Below, in pieces: positions 10,148 through 63,580 of a stretch of 64,000 bases of DNA. The notes beneath the pieces are model-generated. The model saw only the letters and a list, made by a program, of their open reading frames with translations. It was not told where the DNA came from and did not search any database. The position numbers and the translations under genes were made by a program. The first letter of the stretch is position 1. Each line of letters starts with the position of its first letter. The DNA comes from an uncultured Nitrospiraceae bacterium (lineage in GTDB: Bacteria; Nitrospirota; Thermodesulfovibrionia; Thermodesulfovibrionales; Dissulfurispiraceae). The stretch is taken from NCBI GenBank assembly GCA_963727805.1, contig CAVSHF010000005.1, positions 1 through 64,000 on the forward strand. Reading direction: 5' to 3'.

Positions 10148-10241
10148 CTACTGAAAGTCATTGATTTTACCGGTACCAGTAATTTGGTGATTACCCAGAT
10201 AACCTATCATCACCGGTTTGTCGAGTGTCTCCTTGTAACAC
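10148..10241 (+). repeat. Type-B dispersed site, interrupted by IS21
   Basis: CTACTGAAAGTCATTGATTTTACCGGTACCAGTAATTTGGTGATT; colinear with the 63481 copy for ~100 bp. Confidence 0.8.
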
Positions 10242-10456
10242 TGCGTATTTCGGAGCATCGCGACCAGTCATTTCGGTCCATCGCGACCACCTGTTTCGGA
10301 GTATCGCGACCACCCATTTCGGACTGAGCGCGACCACTTTTGGTCGTAGTCCGAAACGAGAGGTCATATAGGAGCTGACGAGAGCGTCGTCTTAGTTGGA
10401 TATAGCAGGGGGTTATAAGTCATTGTTTCTTCTTGACCATTCATCAAGGAGGCACA

Positions 10457-12001
10457 ATGTCCACCCCGACCATAACCATGCAAAAGACGAGAGAGATATT
10501 AAGACTACACTTCGACCTGAAGCTACCCAAGCGGCAGATTGCCCGCTGTGTGAAGGTTTCGCACAGCACCGTCGTAAAGTATCTTGAGAAGGCGGAACAG
10601 GCGGCGATCACCTGGCCGCTGCCCTCTGATCTCGACGACACCGGACTTGAGCAATTGCTGTTCGGCAAGGAATCTGTTGCCCGGGATACAGTCCGGCCAC
10701 TTCCGGCAATGGATGAACTCCACAGGGAACTGAGGAAGAAGGGCGTAACGCTCTATCTCCTATGGCAGGAGTACAAAGAGAAGTACCCCGACGGGTATCA
10801 ATATACTCAGTTCTGCGAGCATTATCGGCGCTGGGCCGAGACCGTTGAAGTCAGCATGCGACAGGTTCATCGTGCAGGCGAAAAGCTCTTCCTGGACTTC
10901 GCGGGCAAAACCATCCCCATCATCAATCCCCTGACGACGGAAGTTTACGAAGCCCAGATCTTCGTCTCAGTACTTGGTGCCAGCAACTATACTTATGCCG
11001 AAGCGGTGCTGCGTCAAGACATCCCGTCCTGGATCAGCTGCAATATAAACGCCCTGGAGTTTATAGGTGGGGTCCCTATGATTATGGTGCCTGACAATCT
11101 CAAGGCTGCAGTGACTAGGGCCTGTCGATACGAGCCGGAACTGAACGCCACATACCAAGAGTTCTCCGCCCATTATGGCACAGTCATCATCCCTGCCAGA
11201 GCAGCAAAGCCAAAGGACAAAGCCAAGGGCGAATCAGCCGTGCTCGTTGTTACTCGATGGATACTTGCGGCCCTTAGAAACCGAACCTTCTTCAGCCTGC
11301 GCGAGTTGAATGAAGCAATCCGAGAGCTCCTTGAGCGACTCAACAATCGTCCCTTCAAAAAGCTGCCCGGATGCAGACGCGAGATGTTTGAGGCGATCGA
11401 CAAGCCGGCATTGAGACCGCTTCCACTGGAACGATACCAATATGCCCAGTGGAAGAAAGCCACCGTCAACATCGACCATCACATCGAGGTCGAAGGTCAC
11501 TGCTATAGCGTTCCTTATCAACTTGTTAGAAAGCAGGTTGACGTCAGGATGACTATGAATACAGTAGAGATTCTATTCAAATCCAGGCGAGTAGCCCTGC
11601 ATCAAAGAAGCTTCCAGAAGGGAGGCTTCACGACGATCGCAGAGCATAGACCCAAGTCCCATCAGCGTTATCTTGAGTGGTCGCCATCGAGGATCATCCA
11701 TTGGGCTGCAAGTACAGTAGGCCCGCATACTGCAGAACTGCTTGAACAGATCATGCTCGCCAGGCCGCATCCCGAACAGGGATACCGCTCATGCCTCGGA
11801 ATCATGAGACTTGGCAAACGATACTCTGCCGAGCGGCTTGAGGCCGCAGCTCAAAGGGCACTCCTTATCAGGTCGTTCTCATACAGAAGCGTTAACTCAA
11901 TCCTTGAGCATGGCATTGACCAGCTACCGATAACCGAAGACAAGGAGGTGACAGCTATCGTCTATCACGACAACATCAGGGGCAGCGATTACTACAACTG
12001 A
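10457..12001 (+). CDS. istA: IS21 transposase
   Basis: HRAGEKLFLDFAG, VPDNLK, KPKDKAKGE. Confidence 0.93.
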   Translation: MSTPTITMQKTREILRLHFDLKLPKRQIARCVKVSHSTVVKYLEKAEQAAITWPLPSDLDDTGLEQLLFGKESVARDTVRPLPAMDELHRELRKKGVTLYLLWQEYKEKYPDGYQYTQFCEHYRRWAETVEVSMRQVHRAGEKLFLDFAGKTIPIINPLTTEVYEAQIFVSVLGASNYTYAEAVLRQDIPSWISCNINALEFIGGVPMIMVPDNLKAAVTRACRYEPELNATYQEFSAHYGTVIIPARAAKPKDKAKGESAVLVVTRWILAALRNRTFFSLRELNEAIRELLERLNNRPFKKLPGCRREMFEAIDKPALRPLPLERYQYAQWKKATVNIDHHIEVEGHCYSVPYQLVRKQVDVRMTMNTVEILFKSRRVALHQRSFQKGGFTTIAEHRPKSHQRYLEWSPSRIIHWAASTVGPHTAELLEQIMLARPHPEQGYRSCLGIMRLGKRYSAERLEAAAQRALLIRSFSYRSVNSILEHGIDQLPITEDKEVTAIVYHDNIRGSDYYN

Positions 12002-12018
12002 ACAACACAAGGAGGTTT

Positions 12019-12771
12019 ATGAACAACCAGACAGTAGAGAAGCTCTACCATATGAAGTTGAGCGGAATGGTTACGGGCTTCAATGAGCAACGTGAGCAGC
12101 CCTCCATGACGGAGCTGTCCTTTGATGACCGCTTCGCCATGATCGTAGAAAGAGAGTGGCTGTACCGGGAAAACAGAAAACTCGCCATAAGGCTCAAGGC
12201 GGCGAAACTAAAAAGGCAAGCGACTATTGAGGACGTTGACTACAGGCACTCAAGGGGTCTCGACAAGTCTCTTATTCTCTCTTTGGCAAACTGCGAGTGG
12301 ATCAAGAACCACCACAACGTTATCATCACGGGGCCTACGGGCATTGGCAAGAGCTACCTCGCTGAAGCATTTGCACAAAAAGCCTGCCGTGAAGGAATGA
12401 CGGCAATCTACTACCGCTATCCACGGCTCTTCAGGGAGCTCGCAATAGCGAGAGGAGACGGCAGTTACCTGAAACTCTTGAACAAGATAGCCAAGACAGA
12501 GCTTCTCGTTATCGACGATTGGGGCTTATCTTCAATGAATGAGGCAGAGAGAAGGGACTTCCTGGAAGTCATAGAGGATCGGCACGGACTCAGATCAACG
12601 CTAATAACGAGCCAGTATCCTGTTTCAAAGTGGTTTGAGTTGATCGGAGAACCGACGCTGGCCGATGCCATACTCGATAGGATCATTCACGCTGCGCACA
12701 AGATCACGCTGAAGGGAGAGTCGATGCGGAAAAAGAAGCAAAACTTGACGCATCGCGACCACTCCGAGTAA
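12019..12771 (+). CDS. istB: IS21 helper ATPase
   Basis: GPTGIGKS, LLVIDDWG, ADAILDRI. Confidence 0.95.
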   Translation: MNNQTVEKLYHMKLSGMVTGFNEQREQPSMTELSFDDRFAMIVEREWLYRENRKLAIRLKAAKLKRQATIEDVDYRHSRGLDKSLILSLANCEWIKNHHNVIITGPTGIGKSYLAEAFAQKACREGMTAIYYRYPRLFRELAIARGDGSYLKLLNKIAKTELLVIDDWGLSSMNEAERRDFLEVIEDRHGLRSTLITSQYPVSKWFELIGEPTLADAILDRIIHAAHKITLKGESMRKKKQNLTHRDHSE

Positions 12772-13155
12772 TATGACTAACCCCAGTGCGACGACGTTCT
12801 CGCAGTGGTCGCCATCGACCGAAACAGCTGGTCGCCATCACCGAAATCCGCACACCTTGATCTGTATCGCTGAGCAATAAGGTGTACTCAAAGTACTGGT
12901 GGTTTCGATAAGTCGCAACTCCATGAAGAGTAGCCACAAAGTCGCATTTCTGCATGGAGAGTTCTGGTATCACTTGCATAGAAAACTATCGAAAGCTCGT
13001 TCTCGACTGCAACCTCTATCTAGGGCAATTAGCGTTTTTCAAATGTCACTAAGATCGCCGCTGGATAGAAAAGTGAAAAAAGCAATGGATGGTAAGCGAC
13101 AATTGGTCACATCGAGCAGGGACAGGCATTCACCCACGTCCCTGCTCGATGCACA

Positions 13156-13530: not shown

Positions 13531-13568
13531 TTTTGTCACCTCCTTTCCTCTCGTCATGTGATCTGCGT

Positions 13569-17906: not shown

Positions 17907-17951
17907 CCCCGAACCGCCTCTCGCCATATCTCCGACCAAACCACAAAACTC

Positions 17952-17995
17952 CTACTGAAAGTCTTTGATTTTACCAGTATCAGGAATTTGGTGAC
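17952..17995 (+). repeat. Type-B dispersed site
   Basis: CTACTGAAAGTCTTTGATTTTACCAGTATCAGGAATTTGGTGA. Confidence 0.8.
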
Positions 17996-19292: not shown

Positions 19293-19645
19293 CCTTTCAG
19301 CAATCGCTTCAACACGTAGCGGCTAGTTCATCATGTGTTAGTCATCAACTGCTCAGCGGAATGACGCTTATTCGGAATCGAGCCGGACACCTCAATGCGG
19401 CTAATGTAAGTATAGCGACATGGAAGCGATAGAACTATTCCGGGTGAAGTTTGAAGGGACTATCGATGATTTCCATTTCTACCCACCAGTGTAAAAAGGA
19501 TACCCTCCGGTGTTGCTTCCTGTGAGCAGGCATTAAGCGTCGAGAAATTTCCCGATACAAGGTTAGCAGGCGAAATCATCGAAAGTAAATAATCGTCCAC
19601 CATAGAGACTTCTTGGTGACATTGAGATACGACCACTGTGATGTG

Positions 19646-19705
19646 CTACTTAAAGTCATCGCCTCAGAGACACGGCATATCATACAAGCTTTCTTCCAGA
19701 AATCT
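19646..19705 (+). repeat. Type-A dispersed site
   Basis: CTACTTAAAGTC-N30-GCTTTCTTCCAGAAATC. Confidence 0.8.
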
Positions 19706-19864
19706 ATATTGAAGTTTTCTCCGATAAGGTGCGCTGTACACCTGATCATTGTCATCAGCATCCTATGCTCAAGACTGATGATTTCTGAAATAATCTGATA
19801 CTTTCGTGCCAGTCATAAAGATGCCATGCTTAACGAAAATTGTGATCTATGTTTTTTTGCCAAA

Positions 19865-23700: not shown

Positions 23701-24197
23701 GTAAACATACCTTCCTTCATATTTATAAATGTTCTCTGTAATTAGCAGATTATATCAAATAGCAATGAGTAATATTATGGAAAGTTTAACAGGCAACAGA
23801 TACTGTGAGATTCTTACGGAAATAAACAACCGGAGAGAATCGCTGGACTGCCGACTTCTTGGTGTTCTCGAAAACTAACCACTGGGAAGTTCGAATAAGC
23901 GTCAATCCGCTGCGAAGTTGCGGATTGACGTGTGAAGGACTAAGCCGCTGTGCGGATATGTCAATTCAATCGAAGATTATCCTTCCTTATACTATCGGCA
24001 GTGGCATCTTTTAGGATATATAGGAGCAAGTCTTGCTGAACAAGGCTGATAGGCAGCGTCTTTAATGCCCCTGTTTGACCTTTGCGATGATGTGCAAGGG
24101 CCGAAAGTGGCGTTTTCGGACAACAAGACCGTGTTGCGAAAAGAGATGTTTTTTTCGCGGGGCGATATTGAGGCGATTTTTGAAACGACCACGGTTT

Positions 24198-25394
24198 TCA
24201 TCGGCATTGCTCCGGAGGATCGTTGCAGCGGCGGGGAGGCAGAATCTCAATTCGGCGCATCTTGCCTTTTTTGCAAACGGGGCAGGTGGTGACGTCAATG
24301 CCGCAGATCCTTAGCAGCTGTTCCTGCCAGGTCTCAGGCTTGTCCTGCTCTTTCATTACGGTGTTGTGACTGTCAAGAAGCTCGCGGCATGCAGCAATGT
24401 TATCTCTACGTTTCCTGTTTGCCAGCAGGCCGAAGTGCCTTATCCGAACGTATCGATTCGGCAGTACATGCAGAAGGAATCTTCTGATGAACTCATCGGC
24501 CTGCAGAGTCATCACCTTGTGCTTATCGTCATCTGCGTAATCACGCCATTTGAACGAGACCTTGCCGTTTTCGGCCTCGATTATACGATTGTTGCTGATG
24601 GCGATCCTGTGCGTATATCGGCCGAGATATTGCAGGACGCCGCCAACTCCGTCGAAGGGCGGTTTGCAGTAGACAACCCACTTCTTGTGATAAAGCTTTC
24701 TTCTGAGCATCTCGAAGGTATGGGAATCGCCGAGATGACTTATTCCTCCGGGAAAGATAAGATCACCCGCTTCAAAGATCCTTTTCAGATGATCGAGGAA
24801 CTTTCCCCGGAACAACGCCGACATTACCCTGACCGGAATGAAGAAGCCTTTGCGGCAGGATACCCAACTGTCTCCGTCGCAAGACAGGCCGCCTCCGGTG
24901 ACGACACAGTGGATATGGGGATGGTCCATCAGATTCTGCCCCCAGGTATGAAGGATGCTGATGAAGCCGATGCGGGCACCGAGATGCTTCTGGTCATTTG
25001 AGAGTTCGGTGAGAGTTTCGGAGACACAACGGAACAGCAGATCATACATGACCTTCTGATTCATTATGACAACCGGATTGAGTTCCGACGGGATAGTGAA
25101 AACTACATGGAAGTACTGGATGGGCAAAAGGTCCTGTTGTCTGGCCTCAATCCACTGTTCTTTTTTCAGGGTCTGGCATTTGGGACAGTGCCTGTTCCGG
25201 CAGGAGTTGTAGGATATCTCGACGTGGCCGCAATCCTCGCACTTGTCCCTATGGCCTCCGAGTGCTGCCGTCCTGCATATCTCCACGGCGTGCATGGCCC
25301 GCAGATGACGAAGAGGCAAGGAATGAGACTGCCGATAATCGGAGCCGTAGCGGCGTAAGATATCCGCCACCTCCACACCACGAGACTGGCGCAT
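24198..25394 (-). CDS. IS91 family (Y2 HUH) transposase with Zn-binding domain
   Basis: CRTAALGG, SCRNRHCPKCQ, HTWG...HPHIH, YLGRY. Confidence 0.93.
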   Translation of the reverse strand: MRQSRGVEVADILRRYGSDYRQSHSLPLRHLRAMHAVEICRTAALGGHRDKCEDCGHVEISYNSCRNRHCPKCQTLKKEQWIEARQQDLLPIQYFHVVFTIPSELNPVVIMNQKVMYDLLFRCVSETLTELSNDQKHLGARIGFISILHTWGQNLMDHPHIHCVVTGGGLSCDGDSWVSCRKGFFIPVRVMSALFRGKFLDHLKRIFEAGDLIFPGGISHLGDSHTFEMLRRKLYHKKWVVYCKPPFDGVGGVLQYLGRYTHRIAISNNRIIEAENGKVSFKWRDYADDDKHKVMTLQADEFIRRFLLHVLPNRYVRIRHFGLLANRKRRDNIAACRELLDSHNTVMKEQDKPETWQEQLLRICGIDVTTCPVCKKGKMRRIEILPPRRCNDPPEQCR

Positions 25395-25415
25395 CTGGAT
25401 TTACGGCTCAGAGTG

Positions 25416-26261
25416 CTACAGATATTTTTTAGTTGCTATGTCCAGCGGACTGACAACTTTTGCCAGATTCATCTTGCTGACATGAAGATAAACGGTCGTG
25501 GTCGTCGGTGACCTGTGCCCAAGAAGCAGTTGGACATGATGAAGACTAGTCCCCGCCTCGATAAGGTGTGTCGCAAAACTATGCCTCAGAGTATGCACGC
25601 AAGCATTCTTTGCGATGCCGGCGCGTTTCTTGGATTTTTGGAATATCTGGTAGATGGAGCTTATAGTGATATGGGTGTTGTCCTTCTCGCCTTCAAATAA
25701 CCACTCCTCCGGGCGATATTCCCTCCAATACTGTCTTAAGCACTCAAGGGCAGTCTGCGATAAGATGGAGTAACGGTCCTTTGCCCCTTTTCCAAGACGG
25801 ACATAAACCAGCATACTCTTGCTGTCGATATCTGTCACCTTCAGTCGCGCAGCTTCACTTATTCTCAACCCGGCAGAATAGGTGATCATCAGAAGCGCCT
25901 TGTGCTTGATGTTTTCAGTGACTGAGAAAATCGCCTGGACTTCGGACAAATCCAAAACGAGAGGCAGCTTCTTCTGGGCTTTCGGATATTGAATATTATT
26001 GACTACATCCGCACGATTCAGGGTCGTATTATAAAGGAACTTGATCCCGGCCACATAGGTTCTGTATGTCCCCCTCGTTAAACCCCTTTCTTCCATAAGA
26101 TGAACCAGATACTGCTTCACTTCCTCTGTACTCAGTTCTTCAGGAGACTTGCCGAAATAATTCTCAAGGTTACCGACTTCCCGGAGATATTTCCTTTGGA
26201 CACCAAGCGTAATGCCCTTCAACTGAAGATCCTGCAGCAACCGTTCTTTCAACGCGCTCAT
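25416..26261 (-). CDS. Tyrosine recombinase associated with IS91-like transposase
   Basis: YSAGLRISE, GKGAKDR, HTLRHSFATH, LLGH, TTVY; no IntI-specific insertion. Confidence 0.92.
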   Translation of the reverse strand: MSALKERLLQDLQLKGITLGVQRKYLREVGNLENYFGKSPEELSTEEVKQYLVHLMEERGLTRGTYRTYVAGIKFLYNTTLNRADVVNNIQYPKAQKKLPLVLDLSEVQAIFSVTENIKHKALLMITYSAGLRISEAARLKVTDIDSKSMLVYVRLGKGAKDRYSILSQTALECLRQYWREYRPEEWLFEGEKDNTHITISSIYQIFQKSKKRAGIAKNACVHTLRHSFATHLIEAGTSLHHVQLLLGHRSPTTTTVYLHVSKMNLAKVVSPLDIATKKYL

Positions 26262-26447
26262 AATACAATCTCCTTTGAAACTGTTTTCTGCCAGCTCATG
26301 CCGGCAGCACAGCAAAGAGAGATTGTAAAAAGACTTCGATGGTTCAACAAAGAAATGTGATCAGGCAAAAGTGGCTATTCGAAAAAGATGGTACTACTAC
26401 TGATAGGCCCTTGCTAATCGAATCCACCGCGCAGCGGTTTAGTCCTA

Positions 26448-26507
26448 CTACTTAAAATCTCAATCGAGGCGCATGGTGCCTGGGGTAGAGATTATTCCTG
26501 GAAATCG
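26448..26507 (+). repeat. Type-A dispersed site
   Basis: CTACTTAAAATC-N30-GATTATTCCTGGAAATC. Confidence 0.85.
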
Positions 26508-26551
26508 TTGTGCAAGCAGCCACCCAAAGTTATCTCTCGCCGTCAATTTTC

Positions 26552-27066: not shown

Positions 27067-27245
27067 GTTTGTTTCTTTCGGCAATTATCGAATGCGTGAT
27101 ACTTGCGCTAGTAATGACTTCTTGGTGAAATTATTGACCCGATAGTCAAAAAAGGTGATCACCCAAATCGATTGTTTCTGCACGTACCCTTGATTGCCGG
27201 CTTGCTCTGTTTAAAAAAAATACAGTATCAAGGTTTCTAATGGCT

Positions 27246-27295
27246 ATCACCAAATTCCTGATACTGGCAAAAGAAATGACTTTCTTAGTTACATC
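27246..27295 (-). repeat. Type-B dispersed site (inverted) downstream of recombinase
   Basis: ATCACCAAATTCCTGATACTGGCAAAAGAAATGACTTTC-TTAGTTACATC; matches the reverse complement of 10141-10192. Confidence 0.8.
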
Positions 27296-27485: not shown

Positions 27486-28325
27486 CTATTTACCATGCAG
27501 AATGTCCATCCACCTGATGGCCTCGGTGTCGCTGATCTTTCCCAAGTAGATCTGGGTAGTTTTCAGATCCTGATGCCTGAGTAAGACTTTTGAGATGATC
27601 TCAAGTGGGACACCATTCCTGCTGGCATAAGTAGCTGAGTGCCTTCGAAGATCATGAGGCGATATGCTTACGTTCAACTTCATGCCGAGTCCGGTGACCA
27701 GGTTCCATACCGTACTGTAACAAACAGGAAACACCCTGTCGGACGGGGACAGTTTCTGACTGGCAATATACTCAGCTAACCTAACAGAGATATGTTCTGG
27801 CATGAAGGCCAACTCCTCGTCCTTGCCCGATTTGGGGCCTTGGATAATGATTTTCCGGCCGGAGACATCTGCTGCGCGAAGGTTAAGAACTTCCCCAATT
27901 CTTAGCCCGCAGCGCGCTTGAAGTTCCAGTATTAGCCGATCTCGGGTATTTTTGGACTTGAAGATGATCTCATCCACTGTTTCTTTGTCCAGAATCTTTC
28001 GGGGCCGATGTTGGGCCATTTTGAATGTTTTTGACAGTGATGCCGTACTGCAGGGACTCTTGATGTTCAAGTCGGTAGCTTCGATGATGTAGTTAAAAAA
28101 CGATTTTATCTGAGCATACCGGAGATGGCGCGTGGACCTGCTCAAACGTTCGGTGCACTCCTCTAGAAATCTGCAGATGTCATCGGAAGATACAGACTCC
28201 ACCGGTTGATCAGAAAAGCTCATCTGTAACTGGGTTAGAAACCCTCCGTAACTCCTTATGGTATTTTTCTTCACGTTACCCTTCTGATGCTGCTTGAAGA
28301 GTTCAACTGCCTCTCGGATAGTCAT
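27486..28325 (-). CDS. Stand-alone Xer-like tyrosine recombinase (279 aa)
   Basis: GLRIGE (R), PKSG (K), HDLRR (HxxR), LRH, TQIY (Y); GGAGG RBS; all catalytic residues intact. Confidence 0.92.
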   Translation of the reverse strand: MTIREAVELFKQHQKGNVKKNTIRSYGGFLTQLQMSFSDQPVESVSSDDICRFLEECTERLSRSTRHLRYAQIKSFFNYIIEATDLNIKSPCSTASLSKTFKMAQHRPRKILDKETVDEIIFKSKNTRDRLILELQARCGLRIGEVLNLRAADVSGRKIIIQGPKSGKDEELAFMPEHISVRLAEYIASQKLSPSDRVFPVCYSTVWNLVTGLGMKLNVSISPHDLRRHSATYASRNGVPLEIISKVLLRHQDLKTTQIYLGKISDTEAIRWMDILHGK

Positions 28326-28497
28326 ATCACACCTCCGTTGTTTAGCCAGGGTCTGCATAGTTTCAGTGTACGACACAATCAGCCATGTGGTATTATTGTG
28401 CCAATCATGAGCGAAAAACGCCCAAGAGTGGCAGTCAATATGATATTGGAAGAAATGCATCTTTAATAACAGTTATCCGGTGAGGGGGTATCTAGAC

Positions 28498-44612: not shown

Positions 44613-45110
44613 AAGCCTTCCCACCCAAGTGACCAGATTATTGCCAAGGTCGTCCCGTCGGACTCCTTTCTTCTTTGATAAATCCGCACGGCACTGCTGG
44701 TTCATTTATTTAGTTGCTGTTGCTTGACTCTGCCTGTTTCGTGATAGAATTGAGAAACCATAGAATAATCTTAAAGGAGACTATTAGATCAAGGAGTTGA
44801 TAAATGGAGAGAAATATTCAACGCGAATTTATGGCAGCGCCGTGGTTTGTCGGTCTTTGGGCAGTTTGGGGAGCTGCATGTTTACTCACTGTATTTCTAA
44901 AATTGCTAATGGGTAAATGGATAATTGCAACATGCTATTTAATAATGGCTTCCTCAATGGCTTTTCTTGTTTATAGATTTTTAAATAACCCAATAATTAA
45001 ATTCCGCATTGACTCAATTGAAATTCTGAACGGGCCTATGTTCTCTGTGAGACATATCTCGAACTCTGATATTTCGCGTCTCGAAAATAAGAGCAATTCT
45101 AAATATAGGA

Positions 45111-46945
45111 GTCGAGTGGCGCGAGGGAATCTCACCCTCACGCTCTCCCAGATCCGGACGTGACAGTCTCCCGTCATCCGGCTCCTATCATCCAGCCTAA
45201 GGTTGAAACCCAGCAATCCAATGGGCGAACAGAGAAGGCTGTCGACAGGCTATCTGTCTCAACCATATTGTCGCCCTCCGGTTATTGGATTTAAACCATT
45301 TGTATTTCCTTTGCATGCATCGGACTAGAATACTATTGAAAGTTTTGAAGATCGGGTACAGTGCAGATTTGTAGTACTGACCATAGTAGTTGATCCAACC
45401 CCGAAGGACTGGATTACAGAAACGTGAAAGCTCTTCAAGGCTCTTGTCACTGCGCCGGTGAATGAACCAACTCCTCATGACTCCACGAATTGCACTGGAC
45501 GCCTTATTACTCACAGCTGGGCTGAAGTTCACAAAGTAATTTCCAGACCGACTCTTTGATCTCCGGGGTCGAAAAGTGTACCCGAGAAAATCAAAGCTCT
45601 CATTCAGGTAACTCTCTTGTCTCAATCCATCCTTACAATAGACAATCTTTGTCTTTTCAGGATGAAGCTCCAGCTTGCACTGCGTAAGCCGCCGTCCAAT
45701 CTCCGTTCTGAGCCATTTGGCTTGCTTCTCACTTTTACAGTGCACAATAGCGTCGTCGGCGTAACGCTCGAAAGGAATGGTTGGAAAGTTTCGTTTCATC
45801 CACTCATCAAACGCATAGTGGAGGAAAAGATTAGCGAGCAGTGGACTTGCGACACCCCCTTGGGGAGTGCCCTTGTCACGGCTCACTCGCGTTCCGTCTT
45901 TCAATTGGGCAGGGGCCTTAAGCCATCGCTCAATGTATAACAGAATCCACTTGCATTCAGTATGCTTTCTAACAGCACGCATAACGAGGTCGTGATCCAG
46001 ATTATCAAAGAACCCTTTGATGTCTAAGTCCACAACCCAGTCATAACGCCAGCATCTCTGACGTGCTACCCCTACCGCTTCAATCGCTGACTTTCCCGGC
46101 CTGTATCCATAGGAATCCTGATGAAAATGAGGCTCCACTTCAGGCTCCAGATACATCTTAACCACCATCTGCGCAATCCGATCTCCTACCGTAGGAATAC
46201 CCAGAGGCCTTATACCTCCGTTATCCTTCGGTATTTCCACGGTGCGCACCGGTGGCGGAAAGTAGCTCCCCGACGACATCCGATTCCAGAGCTTGTAGAG
46301 ATTATCCTTAAGATTCCTCTCAAACTCCTCGATCGATTCCCCATCCACGCCAGCAGCACCACCATTTGCCCTTACCCGTCTAAAGGCTTCCAATACTACT
46401 TGCTTAGAAATACTAAACGGCTTTGCCTTACTCAATAGCTCCTCCCAACAAATGGTTGACTATTCAATAAAGCTGGACGATGTAGCCCCTTTGCTCCGGT
46501 CCCATTACGAACCTTCATCGCTACTGCTGGCTACTCCGCCTCTGTGCTCCGCATCGGTACTCTCATTCTCATGGGGCCACCACTTGAACTTCTCCCTTAG
46601 CATCGGAGCGACAGTTTCCCACGTTCCACACAAGAGCCTGGATCAGCTTCATGCCGCCTTTATGCCGGACGCCGTTCAGGCAGTAAACAGGTATCTCCTG
46701 AACTAATCCTGATGTAAAATAAGATACATCAGTTTTGACGTCGTCCTTTACCTTTCGACACCTCATCAGCGGTTCGCTTGTGCTCATCTCTCTGATCCTT
46801 ACCTGACACGATCTTGTCGTGCCTTTTCCTTAACGCTCACCACACTGGCTCTTTACCAGTGCAGCTTAAGGTGGTTTGAAGCCTGCTCCTGTAAACCGGC
46901 TTCGAGGGGCCAGCCCTCATCTTCTTGTGCAGCCTCGTGGCGCAC
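45111..46945 (-). mobile_element. Group II intron, bacterial class D (RmInt1-like)
   Basis: GTGCG 5' end; domain V GAGCCGGATGAC...CACGTCCGGA; ...CTCGAC 3' end; RT ORF inside. Confidence 0.92.
45197..46435 (-). CDS. ltrA: Group II intron reverse transcriptase/maturase without endonuclease domain
   Basis: AAGVDG, RPLGIPTVGDR, GTPQGG, RYADD, FDFLGY, LRGWINYY. Confidence 0.95.
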   Translation of the reverse strand: MSKAKPFSISKQVVLEAFRRVRANGGAAGVDGESIEEFERNLKDNLYKLWNRMSSGSYFPPPVRTVEIPKDNGGIRPLGIPTVGDRIAQMVVKMYLEPEVEPHFHQDSYGYRPGKSAIEAVGVARQRCWRYDWVVDLDIKGFFDNLDHDLVMRAVRKHTECKWILLYIERWLKAPAQLKDGTRVSRDKGTPQGGVASPLLANLFLHYAFDEWMKRNFPTIPFERYADDAIVHCKSEKQAKWLRTEIGRRLTQCKLELHPEKTKIVYCKDGLRQESYLNESFDFLGYTFRPRRSKSRSGNYFVNFSPAVSNKASSAIRGVMRSWFIHRRSDKSLEELSRFCNPVLRGWINYYGQYYKSALYPIFKTFNSILVRCMQRKYKWFKSNNRRATIWLRQIACRQPSLFAHWIAGFQP

Positions 46946-47164
46946 TTATCTTGGCAAATCATAAATCAATTGCACTTCCTATTAAATGGTTGAAAAAGGT
47001 GGAGCGCAAATTGGTAATTTCTGAAATAGAAAAAAGAGTTACTAAGACGGTCAGTAAAAATGTCGGATGATTTTCCCAATAAAATTATACGCTTGGCAAT
47101 CTTCACTGCTGTTGACTGCAGCTATCATCATTTGGTGGGATCGAGAACAGACCACTGAAAATTC

Positions 47165-47224
47165 CTACTTAAAATCTCCATCTCTGCATATGAGGCGCGG
47201 GGTGGAGATTATTTCTGAAAATCT
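47165..47224 (+). repeat. Type-A dispersed site
   Basis: CTACTTAAAATC-N30-GATTATTTCTGAAAATC. Confidence 0.85.
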
Positions 47225-47241
47225 AGACTGACGCTCTTCTC

Positions 47242-48186: not shown

Positions 48187-48439
48187 TACTCCCTCTTTAT
48201 CCCCGCACGTGAAATGGATTGCCCCGTGTTACGTTCCTGTATGAATATATGCCCATGCGACCTTCCTTTTATCATCTTTTCGCAACCTACAGCACAAATT
48301 TGTTCCTACTTATAACCTTTAAAAAAGCCTACCATGAGTACACTGATGGGTACGAGCGCAAATCTTGAGTGGTCGGTTAGCAATAACACCGACTTATTCT
48401 CAGTTATTGAAAGCTGCAACTACTGACGATTTGCGAGAG

Positions 48440-50393: not shown

Positions 50394-50492
50394 GATTAAG
50401 GGTGGATCAACCTTCAATGCACGTTATTCCATTTGGAATTATGCCATAAGAATAATTCTAAATGGAATGATCCCTAAGCAGAGTCTCGACTC

Positions 50493-50552
50493 CTACTTAA
50501 AATCATCATCGTGAGGACACTGCTCATTATGCAAGATTTCTTCCAGAAATCT
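50493..50552 (+). repeat. Type-A site interrupted at +58..60 by IS1111
   Basis: CTACTTAAAATC-N30-GATTTCTTCCAGAAATCT; resumes AGACTGAAGCTCTTC at 52145. Confidence 0.85.
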
Positions 50553-52144
50553 GATATGTATTAAACCTGTCAAGTGCTGATGATCAGCGTCTTTGTTTTT
50601 TTGTTATAACCTCCTTTTTGGATCATACATTTGGGTCAGGACAGCAGCGATAAACGACGGTAGATCACTCTGATATGCGCGGGTTGGATACCGCATGACT
50701 TGTCTTCGTCGTGGAGCTGCCTGTGTCTAGAGTCGAGGGTCAGCCTTTAAGAAGGCGCCTCTTAGATTTCCCGAGGGTTCTCCCAACCGGCTGCTATCCT
50801 GGCCAAAATGCACACCCGTCGAATCAATGTCCACAGTTGTCTAAGTTTAGAAGAACACATTTATGATTACGAAGCCACTAGGGGCAACAACTTTCTTCTA
50901 CTGTGCATGTTTGCATGTTATGCAACTTTCACCGCAGCACTATTGTTCTTTCCCATAACCTCGCGACCAATAGCCCAAATAAACCCTGCCAACTCCCTTG
51001 CCACTGCAGTGCATGCCTGCACCTTTAGTTTTCCCTTTTGTGTCAGATGCCAGTATCGGCCGCACAAACGTTTTTGCGCTTTCCACGCAATTGCCTGTAC
51101 CGCCTCACTTGCCTTTTCGGCCCTCCGTTGAAGATGAGCTGTTTTCCTAGCAGCAAAACGATAGCTCCAAGAAGCCTCTACAAGTAACCTGCGAACATGT
51201 CCATTGCCTGTTTTGGTAATGCCTCCTCTTTTTTGACGATTACCGCTTGAATCCTCGCTCGGTACTAATCCAAGATAAGCCATTAATTGTCGAGGACTTT
51301 CAAAACGGTTTATATCTCCAATCTCTGATACAATCGTCATCGCCGTTACAAGCTTAACTCCCCGTAATGCCATCAATGCTTCCACCACAGCTCCCAACGA
51401 CCATCCCGCAAGCGCTTTGATCATCTGTTCTTCCAGCGATACCACGCGTCCCTGAAGGTGTTTAACTGCATCTATATACTCTTGAAAGACGATCTGCTGG
51501 ATAGGACTTTCAAAGCTGATCTTTTCAAGCCAGCGGAAATGTGCTTGTGTCCATTTATTTTCGCCGGAGTAGATTCTTTTATTTCGCAACAAAAAGCCGT
51601 TCAATCGTTGCCGGGCACGCCGTTCCATGCTCTTCATATCTTCACGAATTCGTGTGAGGTCTCTAATCGCCTCTTGTTGCTGATCAGGAACCCACACCGC
51701 TGTCAGTTCATTTGCTCTAAGTAAACGCACCAGTGTCACAGCATCGCGCCGATCTGTCTTCACTCGATCTCCGGCTTTCTTCGGTATTAATGAAGGGGCT
51801 ATAACATCGCATCGATGCCCCATGTCCGTTATTTGCCGATATACTCCGTATCCGCACGGTCCAGCCTCATAACAAAAAACAGCCCGACTTCCAGATGGCA
51901 CTACCTTTTTTACCAGCTTCGTTATAGCCTCGGCTGTATTGGCAATCTCCCCATAGTATCGGGGCACTCCATGCTTCCCTGCCGTTGCTACTGCTATCTT
52001 TTCCATGTGTACGTCCATGCCGATAAATGTGCTAAAATTCTTCATAACCTGTCCTCCTTAATTGTGGCTCTGAGCCTTTGGTTTCGTTACCTTAAAGCTT
52101 AACCCACGTCCTTTAAGGTTGGACAGGTTTAATACATTATGTCT
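50553..52144 (-). mobile_element. IS1111-type IS110 element
   Basis: 16-bp sub-terminal IR ATGTATTAAACCTGTC located 7 and 3 nt from the ends; TCT core; long downstream non-coding region. Confidence 0.9.
50918..52045 (-). CDS. IS110 family transposase
   Basis: IGMDVH, YEAGPCG, KTDRRDA, YLGLVPSEDSSG. Confidence 0.95.
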   Translation of the reverse strand: MKNFSTFIGMDVHMEKIAVATAGKHGVPRYYGEIANTAEAITKLVKKVVPSGSRAVFCYEAGPCGYGVYRQITDMGHRCDVIAPSLIPKKAGDRVKTDRRDAVTLVRLLRANELTAVWVPDQQQEAIRDLTRIREDMKSMERRARQRLNGFLLRNKRIYSGENKWTQAHFRWLEKISFESPIQQIVFQEYIDAVKHLQGRVVSLEEQMIKALAGWSLGAVVEALMALRGVKLVTAMTIVSEIGDINRFESPRQLMAYLGLVPSEDSSGNRQKRGGITKTGNGHVRRLLVEASWSYRFAARKTAHLQRRAEKASEAVQAIAWKAQKRLCGRYWHLTQKGKLKVQACTAVARELAGFIWAIGREVMGKNNSAAVKVA

Positions 52145-54464: not shown

Positions 54465-54500
54465 GCTGACAATTTGATGGCAAGAAATCGCTGCAAATAA

Positions 54501-54560
54501 CTACTTATAATCGCGAATCTGCCCACCACGTCACAGATGCTTTATTACAACCGGAAGTCC
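54501..54560 (+). repeat. Type-A dispersed site
   Basis: CTACTTATAATC-N30-TATTACAACCGGAAGTC. Confidence 0.75.
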
Positions 54561-54639
54561 TCAGTGATTCAGTTCTCGGAGAGGCAAGGGCAGTGTTGCC
54601 TATCCAATTCAGTGCGGCGCCACATACGGGTTAGCTGGT

Positions 54640-55290: not shown

Positions 55291-55374
55291 ATTCTCTCCT
55301 TTCTTGATTCTACGGCTTTCCCCAGGTGGTTCAGTTACTATTTTGCTTAACCGTGGGAAATATTATCAATCAGC

Positions 55375-55444
55375 CTACTTATAACTACTTAAAGTCATCG
55401 CCGCAGCGATACGGTTCAAGGCTCAAGATTTCTTCCCGTAATCA
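55375..55444 (+). repeat. Type-A site with duplicated start (CTACTTATAA-CTACTTAAAGTC)
   Basis: Box 2 GATTTCTTCCCGTAATC at +43 from 55385. Confidence 0.85.
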
Positions 55445-55547
55445 AGAGGTATGCCTTTCCCAGTGAGAATGCGGTATACACCGACTCCCATTTAGAGGAC
55501 ACATGTCAAGTAACAAAACATCTGCGTTCGAAGTTTTTTTGACTTCT

Positions 55548-57003: not shown

Positions 57004-57253
57004 ACTCTACACTGCGGATATTTTGCCACAGTAACAGTTACCGTTTGTAACCCTCGCACCAAGACCACAATTCAAAATGCGGTGTTCATGTCGTAAATCT
57101 CACCGAAGTAGATCAGCAGAGCCAGGTTAACGCCCCCACTTCAAGCAGTCAATAAGCACAATAAACCTGTGATTGCTAACGGTAGTAGGACATTTCCTCG
57201 GGGTCACCGTGGGAATGTTTCACTGTCAATCGCCATTTCTGCTACTATCTACT

Positions 57254-59582: not shown

Positions 59583-59870
59583 TATTTAGCAAGTTGATGC
59601 ATGGATTACAAATGCAGTGGAAATTAACCACTTAGAATTGAAGTTCAACGCCTACCAACGTGGAGTTATAATCTCCTCGCAATCAAGAGCGGCACCCTTT
59701 TCTGGAAAATGTGGGCTCCACCGACGAGTCTTGAATTTTACTTTCACCAGGCAGAATGATTTTCAGTTGTACTGTAGCTCACCGACAGAAAATTGACGTT
59801 ACGTATAGCATGTCGAAATCATCGATAGTAAATAATCGCCCACCATAGAGACTTCTACTCCTACACATCA

Positions 59871-61292
59871 AATATGGTATAACCAGAGTATGGACGGTTG
59901 TTAACCGTTCATAAGGGGCAGGAGGACGTGGTTTCCTACAGGGTCAAGAATCCTTTAATAAGTCAGTCCCCTGTCTCCCAAAGCCATGATAAATTGATAG
60001 GGCTACGAGCTCTTGTAAAGATGGAGATATGGTTGGGAGGCATTCCTGCCTAAGGTCCTATGCGGGAGGTGGTTGGAAATGAGCAAAGCATTCGTTGGCA
60101 TCGATGTGTCAAAAGAGCACTCGACTGCCCAAAGCATCGACAGTGACGAAAAGAAGCTTTTTTATTTAAGGTTCTCAATGGACTCAGCGGGGTTCGCAGA
60201 GCTTCGGACTGCTATTAAAGGATGCGGGGTGAACCCGGAGGATATTGTAGTGGCGATGGAGTCCACCGGCTGTTATCATATCAATCTCTTTTCCTTTCTA
60301 TGTGCGGAGGGACTTCGTTGTGCGGTAGTAAATCCGCTTCTGATATCCAAATTTGTTCAGGGATCATTGAGAAAGACCAAGACAGATAAGAAGGATGCGA
60401 TGACCATAGCGCAGTTTCTTCTGAACAATGAGAAGAAGCTGTGCGTGGTAACGTCATCCCAAGATGCGCAGGATCTGAGGGATCTGGCCAGGGAACGAGA
60501 GTCTCAGTCATGGATGATTGCATCACTTAAGAATGACCTCAAACGGCTGCTGCAGAGCACCTTCCCCGAGCTTGAGACACTCCGCAAGAATATTTACACT
60601 GAGACGATGCTGAACTTTGTTCGACAGTATCCATCGGCCAGATTAATCCGGGAGGCAAAGAGGAAAGATATCGACAAAGCACTCATCTGCCCCGGGGAGA
60701 AGCGCAAAAGAGTCCAGATTAGCGCCGACGATCTTATTGAGGCGGCAAAGCGTTCGGTGGGCTCAGCTGCTACAGCGAAGGAGCTTATCGTCTCTGAGAA
60801 GGCAACCACGATCCTGTATCTTCAGGAAAAGTGTGAGAAGATTACCGAGGCATTGGTGGATGCGTGTGAGGCAACACGGATCGAAGATCTTGAGATAATG
60901 AAGACGCTCGACGGGGTGAAAAACATCCTTGGCAGCAGCTTTCTAGCGGAGATGGGAGAGTTGTCCAACTTTAAATCATATAAGAGCTTGATAGCATACA
61001 TGGGGTTCGATCCATCGACTCATCAATCGGGGAAGCATGTGGGGCCAAGCAAAATATCCAAACGAGGGAATCGTCATATGAGGCGCATCACCCATATAAT
61101 GACACTCGGTTCAATAAAATCTGACAATATATTCAGAGAATATTATCTCAGAAGGATAGCCGAAGGATTGCCTAAGATGAAGGCATTAATGGCGACTTCT
61201 CACAAGCTAATAAGAGTGATCTTCTCTATGCTTACACATAGGATGCCGTTTAAAAAGGAGGTGGCTGCTGTATAGTTGACTTATTATCAACA
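59871..61292 (+). mobile_element. IS110-group element inserted at a CA core in a type-A site (site starts at 59855)
   Basis: Removal restores CTACTCCTACACAT-CA-CCGCAGGGATATTGCT, matching the IS1380-free site at 38750. Confidence 0.85.
60079..61275 (+). CDS. IS110 family transposase
   Basis: VGIDVSK, MESTG, KTDKKDA, YMGFDP..HQSG. Confidence 0.93.
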   Translation: MSKAFVGIDVSKEHSTAQSIDSDEKKLFYLRFSMDSAGFAELRTAIKGCGVNPEDIVVAMESTGCYHINLFSFLCAEGLRCAVVNPLLISKFVQGSLRKTKTDKKDAMTIAQFLLNNEKKLCVVTSSQDAQDLRDLARERESQSWMIASLKNDLKRLLQSTFPELETLRKNIYTETMLNFVRQYPSARLIREAKRKDIDKALICPGEKRKRVQISADDLIEAAKRSVGSAATAKELIVSEKATTILYLQEKCEKITEALVDACEATRIEDLEIMKTLDGVKNILGSSFLAEMGELSNFKSYKSLIAYMGFDPSTHQSGKHVGPSKISKRGNRHMRRITHIMTLGSIKSDNIFREYYLRRIAEGLPKMKALMATSHKLIRVIFSMLTHRMPFKKEVAAV

Positions 61293-61444
61293 CCGCAGGG
61301 ATATTGCTTATTAATCAAGGTTTCTTTCGATAATCAAGACAATTACTGTCTGCGTTATTGGATTGATTTCGGGATTTTATGGTATGTGTAACCGATATCC
61401 CGAAATCGGAAAAGCTTCTTGAGATAAGATTCAGCTCCTCACGC

Positions 61445-62018: not shown

Positions 62019-62187
62019 GGTTTAATTATAGTATCAATAATAGTACTATGTCAATGGCTGTCAATATAAATATCAACATTGCACTTGAAAATCTAAGGTA
62101 TGACGAATCAGCATGATAATCCGACGGCCATTTATTTATTGCGGACGGGCGGATGGATAAACAATGGATGTGCCCAGTTCTCAGTAA

Positions 62188-62246
62188 CTACTTAAAATCA
62201 ATACCTGAGGGCTTCCTGAATGTACTTGTGAGTACGTGGAAATCAT
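62188..62246 (+). repeat. Type-A dispersed site (divergent)
   Basis: CTACTTAAAATC...GAGTACGTGGAAATC. Confidence 0.6.
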
Positions 62247-62314
62247 CGGCGGTTCAGTTCGCCCCGAGGCGTGGCAATTTTACACCGATCCACGAAGCGC
62301 TTCGTTATGGAGCC

Positions 62315-62614
62315 TTATTCTTTCTCATCCTCTGGATACCAAGTAAACCCTGGCTCAACTTTTCCGTTTAACCCGTCAAAACTCTTCAGTTCGACAATAT
62401 CTTCAACATAAAACAGCGGCGGATCGTCTTCTTTATTATGAAGTTGGGTGTTAATGTCCTCTCTTCTTCTTATAGTCTCTATCGCCTTTAATGCGGCGTC
62501 ATCAGGATTAGTCGCCTCAACCTGACATGATGTATAGAAACCATGTCTGGCATTCCCATTGCCAAGGTTTATGATGAAGTTATGACCATTTATCAATACG
62601 CGATATTTATTCAT
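62315..62614 (-). CDS. Hypothetical cassette-like protein flanked by attC-like sites
   Basis: GGCGTG..TTT.AC.CCGATCC cores at ~62267 and ~62641, each ending GTTATG. Confidence 0.65.
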   Translation of the reverse strand: MNKYRVLINGHNFIINLGNGNARHGFYTSCQVEATNPDDAALKAIETIRRREDINTQLHNKEDDPPLFYVEDIVELKSFDGLNGKVEPGFTWYPEDEKE

Positions 62615-62749
62615 ATTGTTAGGCATAAAGCTCAACGGGAGGCGTGTGAAGTTTCACGCCGATCCCGCGCAGCGCCTTGTTATGTTTCATTTCTTTTAAT
62701 CGTACACGTCCCTTTGTCATCTTTCTGAGACTATAACACAAAATTACTT

Positions 62750-63580
62750 CTACTTATAATCTCCAATGCGGGGAAACTGCTCATTTTGTAAGGGTCGAGT
62801 AGGCCGGTGGAATCGCACCACCAGCCCCTCACAGATTCCGTACGTGAACCTCTCGATTCATACGGCTCGTGTCAATCATCAAGTTGAGTCTTTGCAGTCT
62901 CAACCATACACATTGAGCGATAGTTCCTCCTGGTCACCCAGTTGACTGGTACTCTTTGTGGATTGACCCATCCCCTTCCCTCCACGGCTTATTATCACCG
63001 CTTCATCGGTACTATTGGACGGTCCGACCCCTTCACCTGCATCGATACTTTCCCCCTTCGTTTGCACTTATAGGGTTTTCTCTTAGCATCAGATGAAGAG
63101 TTCCCGCGTTCCACACAGGAGCCTAGATCAGCTTCATGCCGCCTCTATGCCGGACGCCGTTCAGGCAGTAAACAGGTATCTCCTGAACTAATCCTGATGC
63201 AAAGTAAGAACATCAGTTTTGACGTCGTCCTTTTCCTTTCGACACCTCATCAGCGGTTCGCTTACGCTCATCTCTCTGATCCATCCCTGACACGATCTAG
63301 TCGTGCCTTTTCCTTTAACGCTCACCACCGGAGCCTTTCGACTACAGCAGCTTAAGGTGGGTTGAAGCCTGCTCCTGCAAGCCGGCTTCGAGGGGCCAAC
63401 CCTCATCTTCCTGTGCAGCCTCGTGGCGCACTTACGACCGGAAATCGAGACCAGCGCTTGTCGGTAGAGAATGTTATAGCCACCTGAAAGTCATCTATTT
63501 TACCAGTACCAGAAATTTGGTGATTTCCCGAACAAACTACCATGACCGCTTAGTTGAGTGCTTCCTAGTTACACGCTGAG
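62750..63580 (+). repeat. Type-A site interrupted after +44 by an ORF-less intron, followed by a type-B site at 63481
   Basis: CTACTTATAATC...GG|intron|TTACGACCGGAAATC; CACCTGAAAGTCATCTATTTTACCAGTACC. Confidence 0.8.
62794..63431 (-). ncRNA. ORF-less group II intron, copy 2 (638 nt)
   Basis: Appears identical to 34789-35426. Confidence 0.9.

Follow-up and report, generated by a model that had tools for sequence, protein, structure and literature searches.

What are the short, similarly oriented repeats that recur between unrelated genes along this stretch of an uncultured Nitrospirota chromosome, and do they have anything to do with how those genes came to lie side by side? In the 64,000 nucleotides analyzed (hereafter the window), a one-way row of about 20 short conserved sites marks the joins of swappable accessory-gene modules. 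The first-pass annotation had described a co-oriented array of bipartite motifs, each with a box 1, a spacer and a box 2, and the array is real. The box-1 pattern CTACTYAWARTC matches the window 12 times, exclusively on the + strand and against an expectation of 0.08, and none of 100 shuffled windows yielded 12 or more matches. When a sequence-only model (R1) derived from 14 of the window copies is run on the window with filters off, it recovers 18 strong copies at E <= 8e-6, all on the + strand, and the top minus-strand matches are weak (E = 0.002-0.003, at 8923-8979 and 9094-9130). The units are listed here with strand and evidence.

19634..19713, + strand: junction unit, subfamily B; core at 19646, box 2 at +43 (R1, E=2e-12)
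26436..26513, + strand: junction unit, subfamily A (R1)
28933..29011, + strand: junction unit, subfamily A; core 28946-28957 (R1; homology breakpoint)
30536..30612, + strand: junction unit, subfamily B; B part extends to 30640 (R1)
34735..34788, + strand: junction unit, subfamily C, left part (core and spacer); box 2 resumes at 35427 (R1)
37157..37234, + strand: junction unit, diverged (R1, E=7e-11)
37855..37931, + strand: junction unit, subfamily A (R1)
38750..40467, + strand: junction unit, B variant with core CTACTCCTACAC, split by an insertion sequence; right half 40411-40467 (R1)
44009..44086, + strand: junction unit, subfamily C (R1)
44543..44616, + strand: junction unit, subfamily C; 89% identity with the 44022 copy (R1; sequence comparison)
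47153..47232, + strand: junction unit, subfamily A (R1)
48298..48372, + strand: junction unit, full copy (R1, E=7e-10)
50481..50553, + strand: junction unit, subfamily B; IS110-family element directly after box 2 (R1)
54490..54569, + strand: junction unit, subfamily C (R1)
55373..55452, + strand: junction unit, subfamily B, with an IS110-family element after it (R1)
57041..57100, + strand: diverged unit with core CCGTTTGTAACC and dyad at +43; first part of the cation-efflux module (left limit of homology with G003)
59855..61340, + strand: junction unit, B variant, split in the spacer by an IS110-family element; right half 61279-61340 (R1)
62175..62253, + strand: junction unit, diverged (R1)
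62744..62784, + strand: junction unit, left part; box 2 resumes at 63432 (R1)

All 17 copies originally listed as full are members of the family, with corrections to some. At 34745 and 62750, a group II intron has displaced box 2 (to 35427 and 63432, respectively), leaving box 1 with just the spacer. Insertion sequences interrupt the copies at 38750 and 59855, and therefore what had been read there as box 2 at +43 is insertion-sequence DNA. Conversely, a start at 48306 that had been taken for an isolated box 1 is a full copy by R1. Across the 3.9-Mb genome, R1 finds 52 copies (40 on the + strand and 12 on the - strand) concentrated in a few clusters, including C5 19-67 kb, C5 551-567 kb and C3 775-808 kb, rather than the genome-wide scatter in random orientation that had been held out as evidence against the array. 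Within the C5 19-67 kb cluster, all 21 copies are on the + strand. Related copies occur in 6 of the 41 relatives searched, this genome being included in the count.

Each unit consists of a 12-nt core (box 1), a fixed 30-nt spacer that is specific to its subfamily, and the box-2 dyad. The fixed spacing between the boxes was described correctly at the outset, as 13 of 14 aligned copies are free of indels there; the spacer, described at the same time as variable, is instead conserved inside subfamilies A, B and C. Sequence beyond box 2 frequently belongs to the unit for another 40-190 nt, and many copies extend to about +105; the 26436..26513 unit and the 28946 copy have approximately 160 nt in common. 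In subfamily B the dyad reads AGATTTCT-TCC-AGAAATCT and forms a hairpin with an 8-bp stem and a 3-nt loop. Upstream of the core, three left-arm families pair freely with subfamilies A, B and C, and [ACG]TAA directly precedes 13 of about 50 units by our own count. The units are not palindromic, and neither terminal inverted repeats nor target-site duplications are evident in alignment A1.

A second repeat of about 125 nt, designated D type, begins with a core-like 12-mer. It is present in the genome in 50 copies in both orientations (24 on the + strand and 26 on the - strand by nhmmer), and the following lie in the window.

10145..10263, + strand: D-type copy (nhmmer E=1e-30)
17950..17995, + strand: D-type copy, partial (nhmmer E=2e-9)
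27232..27284, - strand: inverted D-type copy, 3′ of a DMP19-like gene (nhmmer E=1.6e-8; self-BLAST)
30641..30702, + strand: D-type core, where the methyltransferase module begins (cross-genome homology starts at 30634-30643)
63478..63597, + strand: D-type copy directly after a B part (nhmmer E=1e-31)

The starts at 10148, 17952, 30641 and 63481, previously grouped with the array, do carry the core-like 12-mer, but they are members of this second repeat.

The genes between the sites are accessory and of mixed orientation, in keeping with the modular layout first proposed, and several of the modules lie in different contexts in other genomes. Modules containing a recombinase with an FRP-like neighbor, a methyltransferase, an MPG glycosylase, cation-efflux genes or HicAB have counterparts at other places in other genomes with 86-97% identity, versus 75-84% for flanking ordinary genes. 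The first-pass annotation proposed testing whether breakpoints fall at box 1, and similarity to other genomes and to metagenome contigs does break off there. The recombinase-FRP module matches G003 and contigs of runs X2 and X4 up to the core at 28946-28957; the methyltransferase module matches G004 (97%), G003 (95%) and the same two runs from 30634-30643 onward; and for the cation-efflux module, the breakpoint with G003 is at 57041. The HicAB module is bracketed by the units at 61279-61340 and 62175..62253, and in G010 it is likewise bracketed by units. The 5′ edge of the core is thus a real junction of separately inherited modules. The right-hand ends are less regular, with homology ending 26-39 nt before the next core in three modules, and the methyltransferase module lacking a core at its right end in G003 and G004. 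Contigs aligned to the region revealed no excised circle, including the predicted form with a single reconstituted site, and no empty site or cassette-sized deletion; orthologous empty sites were not found among the relatives, which are about 75% identical and mostly represented by fragmented assemblies.

The same edge of the core is also a landing point for an active insertion sequence, and other mobile elements lie in or beside the units.

23892..26447, - strand: IS91-family unit, the right end of which exactly abuts the core of the next junction unit (Pfam; flanks)
27486..28460, - strand: divergent tyrosine recombinase of 324 aa, inside the array (Pfam)
34789..35426, - strand: ORF-less group II intron at the foot of box 2 (Rfam RF00029 and RF01999)
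45105..46945, - strand: full-length group II intron with RT/maturase at 45197-46435 (homology profiles; ends read)
62794..63431, - strand: second ORF-less group II intron at the same box-2 spot (97% identical to the 34789 copy)

The IS91-family unit encodes a Y2 transposase (24198-25394) and a XerC/D-like tyrosine recombinase (25416-26315), both assigned by Pfam, and is present in eight copies that are 100% identical. In six of the eight, the 12-nt core, 30 nt and the box-2 dyad directly follow the element, and the insertion at C3:887339-889894 is at the exact equivalent of the uninterrupted site 57040/57041. The left flanks end in GTTA, AGTA, GGTA, AGTT and similar sequences; no target duplication was seen at these insertions, and the ends of the element have no significant similarity to junction units. 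All three group II introns in the window (group IIC) are inserted at ...G|TTAY of box 2, the full-length one at the same spot of a degenerate copy (TTATCTTGGCAAATC at 46946). Box 2 is used by both the introns and the IS91-family unit. Further insertions include a DDE insertion sequence at about 38756-40408 that splits the 38750 unit, an IS110-family element at about 50551-52148 directly after box 2 of the 50481 unit, and IS110-family transposases at 55893-57068 (after the 55373 unit) and 60073-61275 (splitting the 59855 unit).

Taking these features together, we would give about an even chance to a reading in which gene modules have been inserted in tandem and the repeats are their conserved ends or their attachment sites. 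The set of modules would be specific to this lineage. A module would comprise a 12-nt core (CTACTTAAAGTC-like), the 30-nt spacer, the box-2 dyad, up to approximately 190 nt more in some copies, cargo genes and, on the right, a short arm. Incoming modules, like the IS91-family unit, would enter exactly at the 5′ border of a core already in place, which would generate a one-directional, head-to-tail array. Insertion would be site-specific and guided by the dyad 43 nt away; we infer this guidance because the dyad is common to all six IS91-family target sites and the group IIC introns sit there.

The enzyme responsible was initially proposed to be a site-specific recombinase; the junctions stand, but no recombinase was found consistently next to the arrays. 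In the order in which we rank them, the candidates are the Y2 transposase of the eight-copy IS91-family unit, which might act in trans through a single-strand, HUH-type reaction, the XerC/D-like recombinase carried by the same unit, the 324-aa recombinase at 27486-28460, and the host XerCD. The third candidate has a copy in G003 that is 96% identical, with the same FRP-like neighbor and a junction unit after it; its homologs occur in 8 of 40 relatives, and four of these loci are without such sites.

HUH-type single-strand transposition fits the anatomy at least as well as a site-specific recombinase does. Transposons of this kind (IS200/IS605, IS91/ISCR) have ends that are not inverted repeats, make no target duplication, use a short specific target and show strong orientation bias. 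Here, inverted-repeat ends are not evident and duplications are missing at the IS91-family insertions, insertion would be beside a short specific sequence, the units show a strong orientation bias, a small dyad lies at a fixed distance from the junction, and a well-defined core end is paired with less regular right ends. The differences are that the modules contain no transposase, that the ends of the IS91-family unit do not resemble junction units, and that the hairpin is without statistical support from covariation or folding energy, no covariation having been found in the box-2 dyad beyond its consensus. These families are not known to form tandem arrays of cargo.

The dif modules of Acinetobacter are also discrete accessory modules, including toxin-antitoxin pairs, that are delimited by short conserved sites and occur in varied contexts. 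Insertion sequences are described as targeting pdif sites at a fixed distance and orientation (PMC10132070; PMC6449649). Left-arm family (i), alone among the three, has CGATAA at its end, matching the inner part of the XerC arm in the dif site of this genome (...CCGATAA-GATATA-TTATGTTAAAT at C3:516979). However, pdif sites are 28-bp sequences of an 11-nt XerC arm, a 6-nt center and an 11-nt XerD arm, palindromic in their inner parts and better conserved in the XerD arm, that form inverted repeats on plasmids, whereas these units span 60-250 nt, are direct repeats on a chromosome (18 of 18 strong window units, with none of the inverted flanking of dif modules) and carry AAAGTCATC, AAAATCTCC or ATAATCGCG in the position of the XerD arm. 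A cassette-capture system that operates without an integron integrase or attC folding, in which modules with a sequence-defined end are served in trans, most plausibly by the HUH Y2 transposase or the XerC/D-like recombinase of an IS91-family unit with an identical insertion point, is a tentative possibility that we place on the unlikely side. If it exists, it would constitute a third route, beside integrons and Xer-dependent dif modules, for stacking exchangeable genes.

A somewhat less probable reading, which still deserves real weight, is that the repeats are an old, modular, non-autonomous intergenic family of BOX/ERIC/MITE type that moves no genes. Its many copies would offer safe landing pads to sequence-specific insertion sequences and introns, and mobile DNA and rearrangements would accumulate around them. 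Consistent with this are the dispersed D-type companion, in nearly equal numbers on the two strands, the modular and often truncated units, the five kinds of mobile element in or beside them, and the fact that no dedicated enzyme was found. BOX, ERIC and REP/BIME sequences are similarly short, modular, lineage-specific and intergenic, with tens of copies, but their copies are dispersed in either orientation and do not mark joins between exchangeable modules. Moreover, REP elements are palindromic and tied to RAYT transposases, whereas the junction units are not palindromic and the window's sole Y1 gene encodes an ordinary IS200-type transposase. Set against a passive family, the box 1-box 2 units are strongly clustered and oriented 40:12, modules are more alike between genomes than flanking ordinary genes, and the breakpoints fall at the edge of the unit, where homologous exchange would be expected to place them inside it. 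The DNA on the whole of one side of the core differs between genomes, and not the repeat alone: the unit following the FRP module is of A type here, C type in G003 and B type in run X4, with unrelated DNA beyond, and therefore simple repeat insertion does not account for it.

It is improbable that the units are instead a promoter, operator or terminator region shared by a set of accessory genes, in which a common regulator would bind box 2. Box 2 would make a good protein-binding dyad, and TATAAT occurs on the minus strand of B copies and TTGACA-17-TGTAAT, facing +, in two A copies (the 26436..26513 unit and the 28946 copy), but a promoter scan gave no consistent promoter-like sites in the units and the minus strand has no terminator-like site in 44-64 kb. 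Furthermore, a position 3′ of an ORF is commoner among the units than a 5′ one (26 of 36 units are 3′ of a co-directional right-hand ORF and 18 of 36 of a left-hand one), and regulation leaves both the breakpoints at the core and the targeting by IS91-family units unexplained.

Decayed 3′ ends of a protein family were raised early as a counter-explanation, and codon position, stop codons and protein searches all came out negative. In this very improbable scenario, mobile elements bringing replacement 3′ ends would have displaced those of a single gene. The core does read as a minus-strand stop codon (...DFK-stop), with peptide-like translations, but the three minus frames are equally "conserved" with no third-position excess (p=0.26), stops are not depleted (1.35 per 34 codons, versus 1.2-1.5 in four other frames), open frames that terminate in the motif reach at most 58 aa, and neither a longer protein with the motif (three candidates, none scored) nor a Pfam match was found.

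Integrons and CALINs resemble the array in several ways: a one-way array of small accessory modules, a 60-130-nt site after an ORF, a junction at the edge of the site, some units without an ORF, and invasion by group IIC introns and IS110-family elements. IS110-family elements home to attC (IS1111-attC). The cargo is also cassette-like, including a toxin-antitoxin pair, and by our tally about 10 window modules fit the ORF-then-site layout and 7 do not. Group IIC introns are described as homing to attC (PMC3001079). An atypical CALIN with unrecognized attC sites is nevertheless the least probable explanation of all, since none of 21 genome-wide matches to TIGR02249 reaches the 265-bit integron-integrase cut-off (best 86.5 bits per stretch), RNAalifold, run with RNA and DNA parameters on both strands of alignments of 28 and 19 copies, gives no consensus fold or hairpin, single-strand folding energies approximate those of shuffled sequence (26 copies folded at two lengths; mean z -0.13 to +0.15, and no more than 2 of the 26 below -2), and the introns share the strand of the ORF sense instead of lying opposite to it.

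The initial statement that the sites differ from attC, dif, REP and CRISPR repeats is borne out, with no integron integrase, attC-like fold or XerD arm; attC was rejected as a candidate. Sites here are conserved in sequence rather than in fold, with no R″/R′ pairing or single-strand hairpin, and single-sequence folds of 10 sequences gave z values of -1.9 to +0.8. The 27486..28460 recombinase scores 50 bits against TIGR02249, and that of the IS91-family unit 158 bits over two stretches (profile 20-178 and 233-313) with the middle skipped. Also different from integrons is the orientation of the genes, of which roughly a third to half are reversed.

The box-1 pattern described in the first-pass annotation is real, with 12 matches in the window, all on the plus strand, against 0.08 expected. 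A sequence-only model built from the alignment of 14 window copies gives, with filters off, 18 window matches at E <= 8e-6, again all on the plus strand, the best minus-strand matches reaching merely E = 0.002-0.003. Each junction unit comprises a core of 12 nt (CTACTTAAAGTC-like) and a 17-nt dyad, box 2, separated by a spacer of exactly 30 nt that is indel-free in 13 of the 14 aligned copies. The spacer, initially described as variable, is not free to vary, its sequence being kept within each of three subfamilies.

Junction-unit subfamilies in the window, within which the spacer is conserved
26448, 28946, 37868, 47165; plus strand; subfamily A
19646, 30548, 50493, 55385 and two copies split by insertion sequences; plus strand; subfamily B
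34745, 44022, 44551, 54501; plus strand; subfamily C

Many B copies extend to about +105. Left of the core, the sequence falls into a small number of 20-40-nt arm families that recur; one of them terminates in ...TCGATAA.

Across the source genome (3.9 Mb in five contigs, the window being C5:1-64000), the unit model finds 52 units, 40 on the plus and 12 on the minus strand, with clusters at C5 19-67 kb, C5 551-567 kb, C3 775-808 kb, C3 0-61 kb and on C4. All 21 units of the first of these clusters lie on the plus strand. For replication strand as the cause of the orientation the picture is mixed: on C5 as a whole the skew is uniform and 29 of 31 units are on the plus strand, but on C3 orientation is mixed over short distances. 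Among 41 genomes searched, units occur in the source (52), G003 (32), G004 (11), G005 (7), G010 (2) and G001 (1), five of these six belonging to one genus, and the same model finds none in the remaining 35. Scanning one genome per species with the strict pattern gave 11 loci, three of them in two Nitrospirota assemblies; the other eight, each a lone match, come from unrelated genomes that are mostly AT-rich and are taken as chance.

Three independent lines, namely homology breaks, the shuffling of arms and subfamilies, and IS91-family insertions, agree on a junction directly 5′ of the core. All comparisons draw on assemblies that are about 75% identical in ordinary genes and mostly fragmented, together with metagenome contigs. 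A module carrying a recombinase and a fluorescence-recovery protein (FRP) homologue (27200-28945) is 90-95% identical in G003, where it is followed by a C-type unit and then by unrelated DNA; in contigs of two public metagenome runs, X2 and X4, the match stops at 28952-28954, and X4 goes on with a B-type unit. Similarly, homology to a methyltransferase module starts at 30634-30643 in G004 (97%), G003 (95%), X2 and X4, with different upstream DNA in each, and a cation-efflux module starts at 57041, a diverged core. A HicAB module, at 61343-62094 in the window, is flanked by units on both sides here and in G010, a member of another genus. The modules are 86-97% identical between genomes, as against 75-84% for flanking ordinary genes, which points to recent exchange. 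Core subfamilies and arm families are found in many different combinations. The proposal that sites of this kind are junctions of modules moved by a recombinase is supported as regards the junctions, with breaks at the box-1 edge for several modules; a recombinase is one candidate for the mover. A further break within the methyltransferase module, at 31702, is due to an IS200/IS605-type element in its 3′ part (31699-32804; Y1 transposase 32251-32679), which lies directly after TTAC.

In the parts of the region that contigs from four public runs cover (best share 0.38), no module-sized joint is present, and the joints that do occur reflect only insertion sequences that are present or missing and variants of the introns. 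The neighbours of solitary units in genomes of the same genus are too diverged or rearranged to be compared as empty sites.

The third line comes from an IS91-family unit of 2,556 bp (window 23892-26447), which encodes a Y2 transposase and an extra XerC/D-like tyrosine recombinase and is present in eight 100% identical copies in the source genome, in the window and at seven other places. Six of the eight directly abut the 5′ edge of a 12-nt core, followed by the 30 nt and the box-2 dyad; the insertions have no target duplication, and one is the counterpart of the intact site 57040/57041. Since the six targeted cores vary widely, the feature common to the targets is the dyad at +43. As ends of this element the junction units find no support: no alignment exceeds z=3 against shuffles, and an anchored 8/13 match between its left end and the B core is suggestive at most. 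A literature search found no description of IS91 units with such a target.

Taken as a whole, the units could well be the ends of mobile gene modules, or else their attachment sites, a reading to which we give about an even chance and under which each new module would be inserted against an existing core, at its 5′ edge. Their anatomy combines ends that are not inverted repeats, no duplication, a small dyad at a fixed distance, strong orientation bias, one sharp and one looser end, and an insertion point shared with an IS91-family element. Given the traits of the HUH families, a single-strand reaction of the HUH type would fit this anatomy as well as, or better than, one by a tyrosine recombinase. 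The main alternative, a passive repeat family that merely draws in site-specific elements, seems less likely, since whole sides change at the core edge, beyond the repeat itself; were it true, the units would be a lineage-specific repeat family of modest interest.

Several mobile elements do gather at the units. The window's group II introns, three in number and all on the minus strand, occupy one spot, ...G|TTAY, where the dyad has its foot; they share their strand with most neighbouring ORFs. A fourth copy is located in the C3 cluster. Group IIC introns are described as inserting downstream of palindromes and in the bottom strand of attC (PMC3001079). Two ORF-less copies (34741-35439 and 62746-63444) are 97% identical to one another. 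Where they align with the full-length, RT-encoding intron the identity is 84% (34996-35429 against 46513-46948), and they may depend on the protein of that copy. Elements of the IS110 family are found immediately behind box 2 (50551) and inside a spacer (59871), and the core at 38760 is interrupted by a DDE insertion sequence. Mobile modules with a core and dyad would explain why group IIC introns, IS110-family and IS91-family elements gather here, and genome surveys that use group IIC introns as integron markers would call for caution.

Two systems that stack exchangeable single-gene modules at short sites are known: integrons and, on plasmids of Acinetobacter, the dif modules (described in PMC6449649). 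The array here is chromosomal and lacks IntI, folded attC and Xer sites. If the units do delimit mobile modules, cassette stacking would have arisen again with other machinery, and tests could start from a defined substrate, the core with its dyad, and from a handful of candidate enzymes. Literature searches turned up no account of a system like this.

Several other identities were rejected. The first-pass view that the sites are not attC is borne out: no protein of the genome reaches the integron-integrase cut-off, RNAalifold returns no consensus structure for either strand, whether 28 or 19 copies are aligned, and single-strand DNA folding energies equal those of shuffles (26 copies; mean z -0.13 to +0.15; at most 2 of 26 below -2). 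The dyad has no covariation beyond its consensus. The same annotation's exclusion of dif is likewise upheld: the canonical genomic dif (C3:516979, ...CCGATAA-GATATA-TTATGTTAAAT, near the cumulative GC-skew peak) has an XerD arm, TTATGTTAAAT, without counterpart in the units, and its inner XerC-arm hexamer, CGATAA, recurs in only one arm family. Three further dif-like sites with good XerD arms lie at C5:441783, C5:898505 and C4:75870, the XerC side of the last, GGATCTCGATAA, being almost identical to left-arm family (i) of the units. The possibility, also raised at the outset, that the copies are 3′ ends of a decayed protein family proved negative by periodicity, stops and protein search: a third-position excess is absent (p=0.26), stops are not depleted in the ...DFK-stop frame, no open frame that ends in the motif exceeds 58 aa, the motif has no Pfam match, and no longer protein shares it, a search with just three word-sharing candidates that is weak alone. 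Within the window, Rfam at gathering threshold matches just the introns and one riboswitch, and in four other loci one intron and nothing else; a tRNA search found none; and promoter- and terminator-like sites show no consistent placement within the units.

Some of the B copies are followed by a second repeat of about 125 nt, the D type, which starts with a core-like 12-mer, CACCTGAAAGTC or CTACTGAAAGTC. It is a separate and more scattered family of 50 genomic copies in both orientations (24 plus, 26 minus). Its minus-strand translation resembles ...PHFSA..CYKE..GNHQIPGTGKIDDFQ, and the repeat has no codon periodicity.

D-type repeat copies in the window
8840-8896
10145-10263
17950-17995
27232-27284
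58519-58567
63478-63597

Among candidate enzymes, a 324-aa recombinase (27486-28460) sits inside the array, and its neighbour and a junction unit are kept in G003. Homologues occur in 8 of 40 relatives at 62-96% identity (one a short fragment, 82%). Its link to the array is tentative, as no unit was found around the homologues in G024, G028, G007 and G023; the first three also have no repeat array. The recombinase of the IS91-family unit is found in 5 of 41 genomes, three of them with units, a count blurred by fragmented assemblies. Otherwise the genome encodes candidates for XerC and XerD, a further integrase, an integrase pseudogene and, at three loci, four serine-recombinase matches; none of them adjoins the arrays. 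The pseudogene, phage-type and frameshifted, closes the island on the right (L061 7300-9000, that is C5:71.3-73.0 kb; minus strand). Around it are three copies of a short sequence whose translation resembles the T-arm end of a tRNA, and ARAGORN finds no tRNA there. G003 contains many adjacent pairs of tyrosine-recombinase genes (open frames of 333-355 aa), one directly upstream of its methyltransferase module copy, an arrangement reminiscent of recombinase-in-trio elements.

When ORFs of at least 90 aa are counted around 42 units, 26 of 36 right-hand ORFs end toward the unit, running minus relative to it, and the left-hand ORFs split 18/36. Units therefore tend to follow an ORF, as attC does, a loose rule that by our own tally about 10 modules of the window obey and seven do not. 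Cargo beside the recombinase inside the array includes, in this Nitrospirota genome, the FRP homologue (28480-28821, plus strand; PF18032, 85 bits), fluorescence-recovery protein being cyanobacterial, and a DMP19-like protein of the DNA-mimic type (26625-27002, plus strand). Elsewhere in the window, a c-di-GMP-I riboswitch (20157-20238, plus strand; 48 bits against a gathering score of 35) lies upstream of a HAMP-GGDEF gene (20607-21959, plus strand), through which the second messenger may control its own cyclase-type gene.
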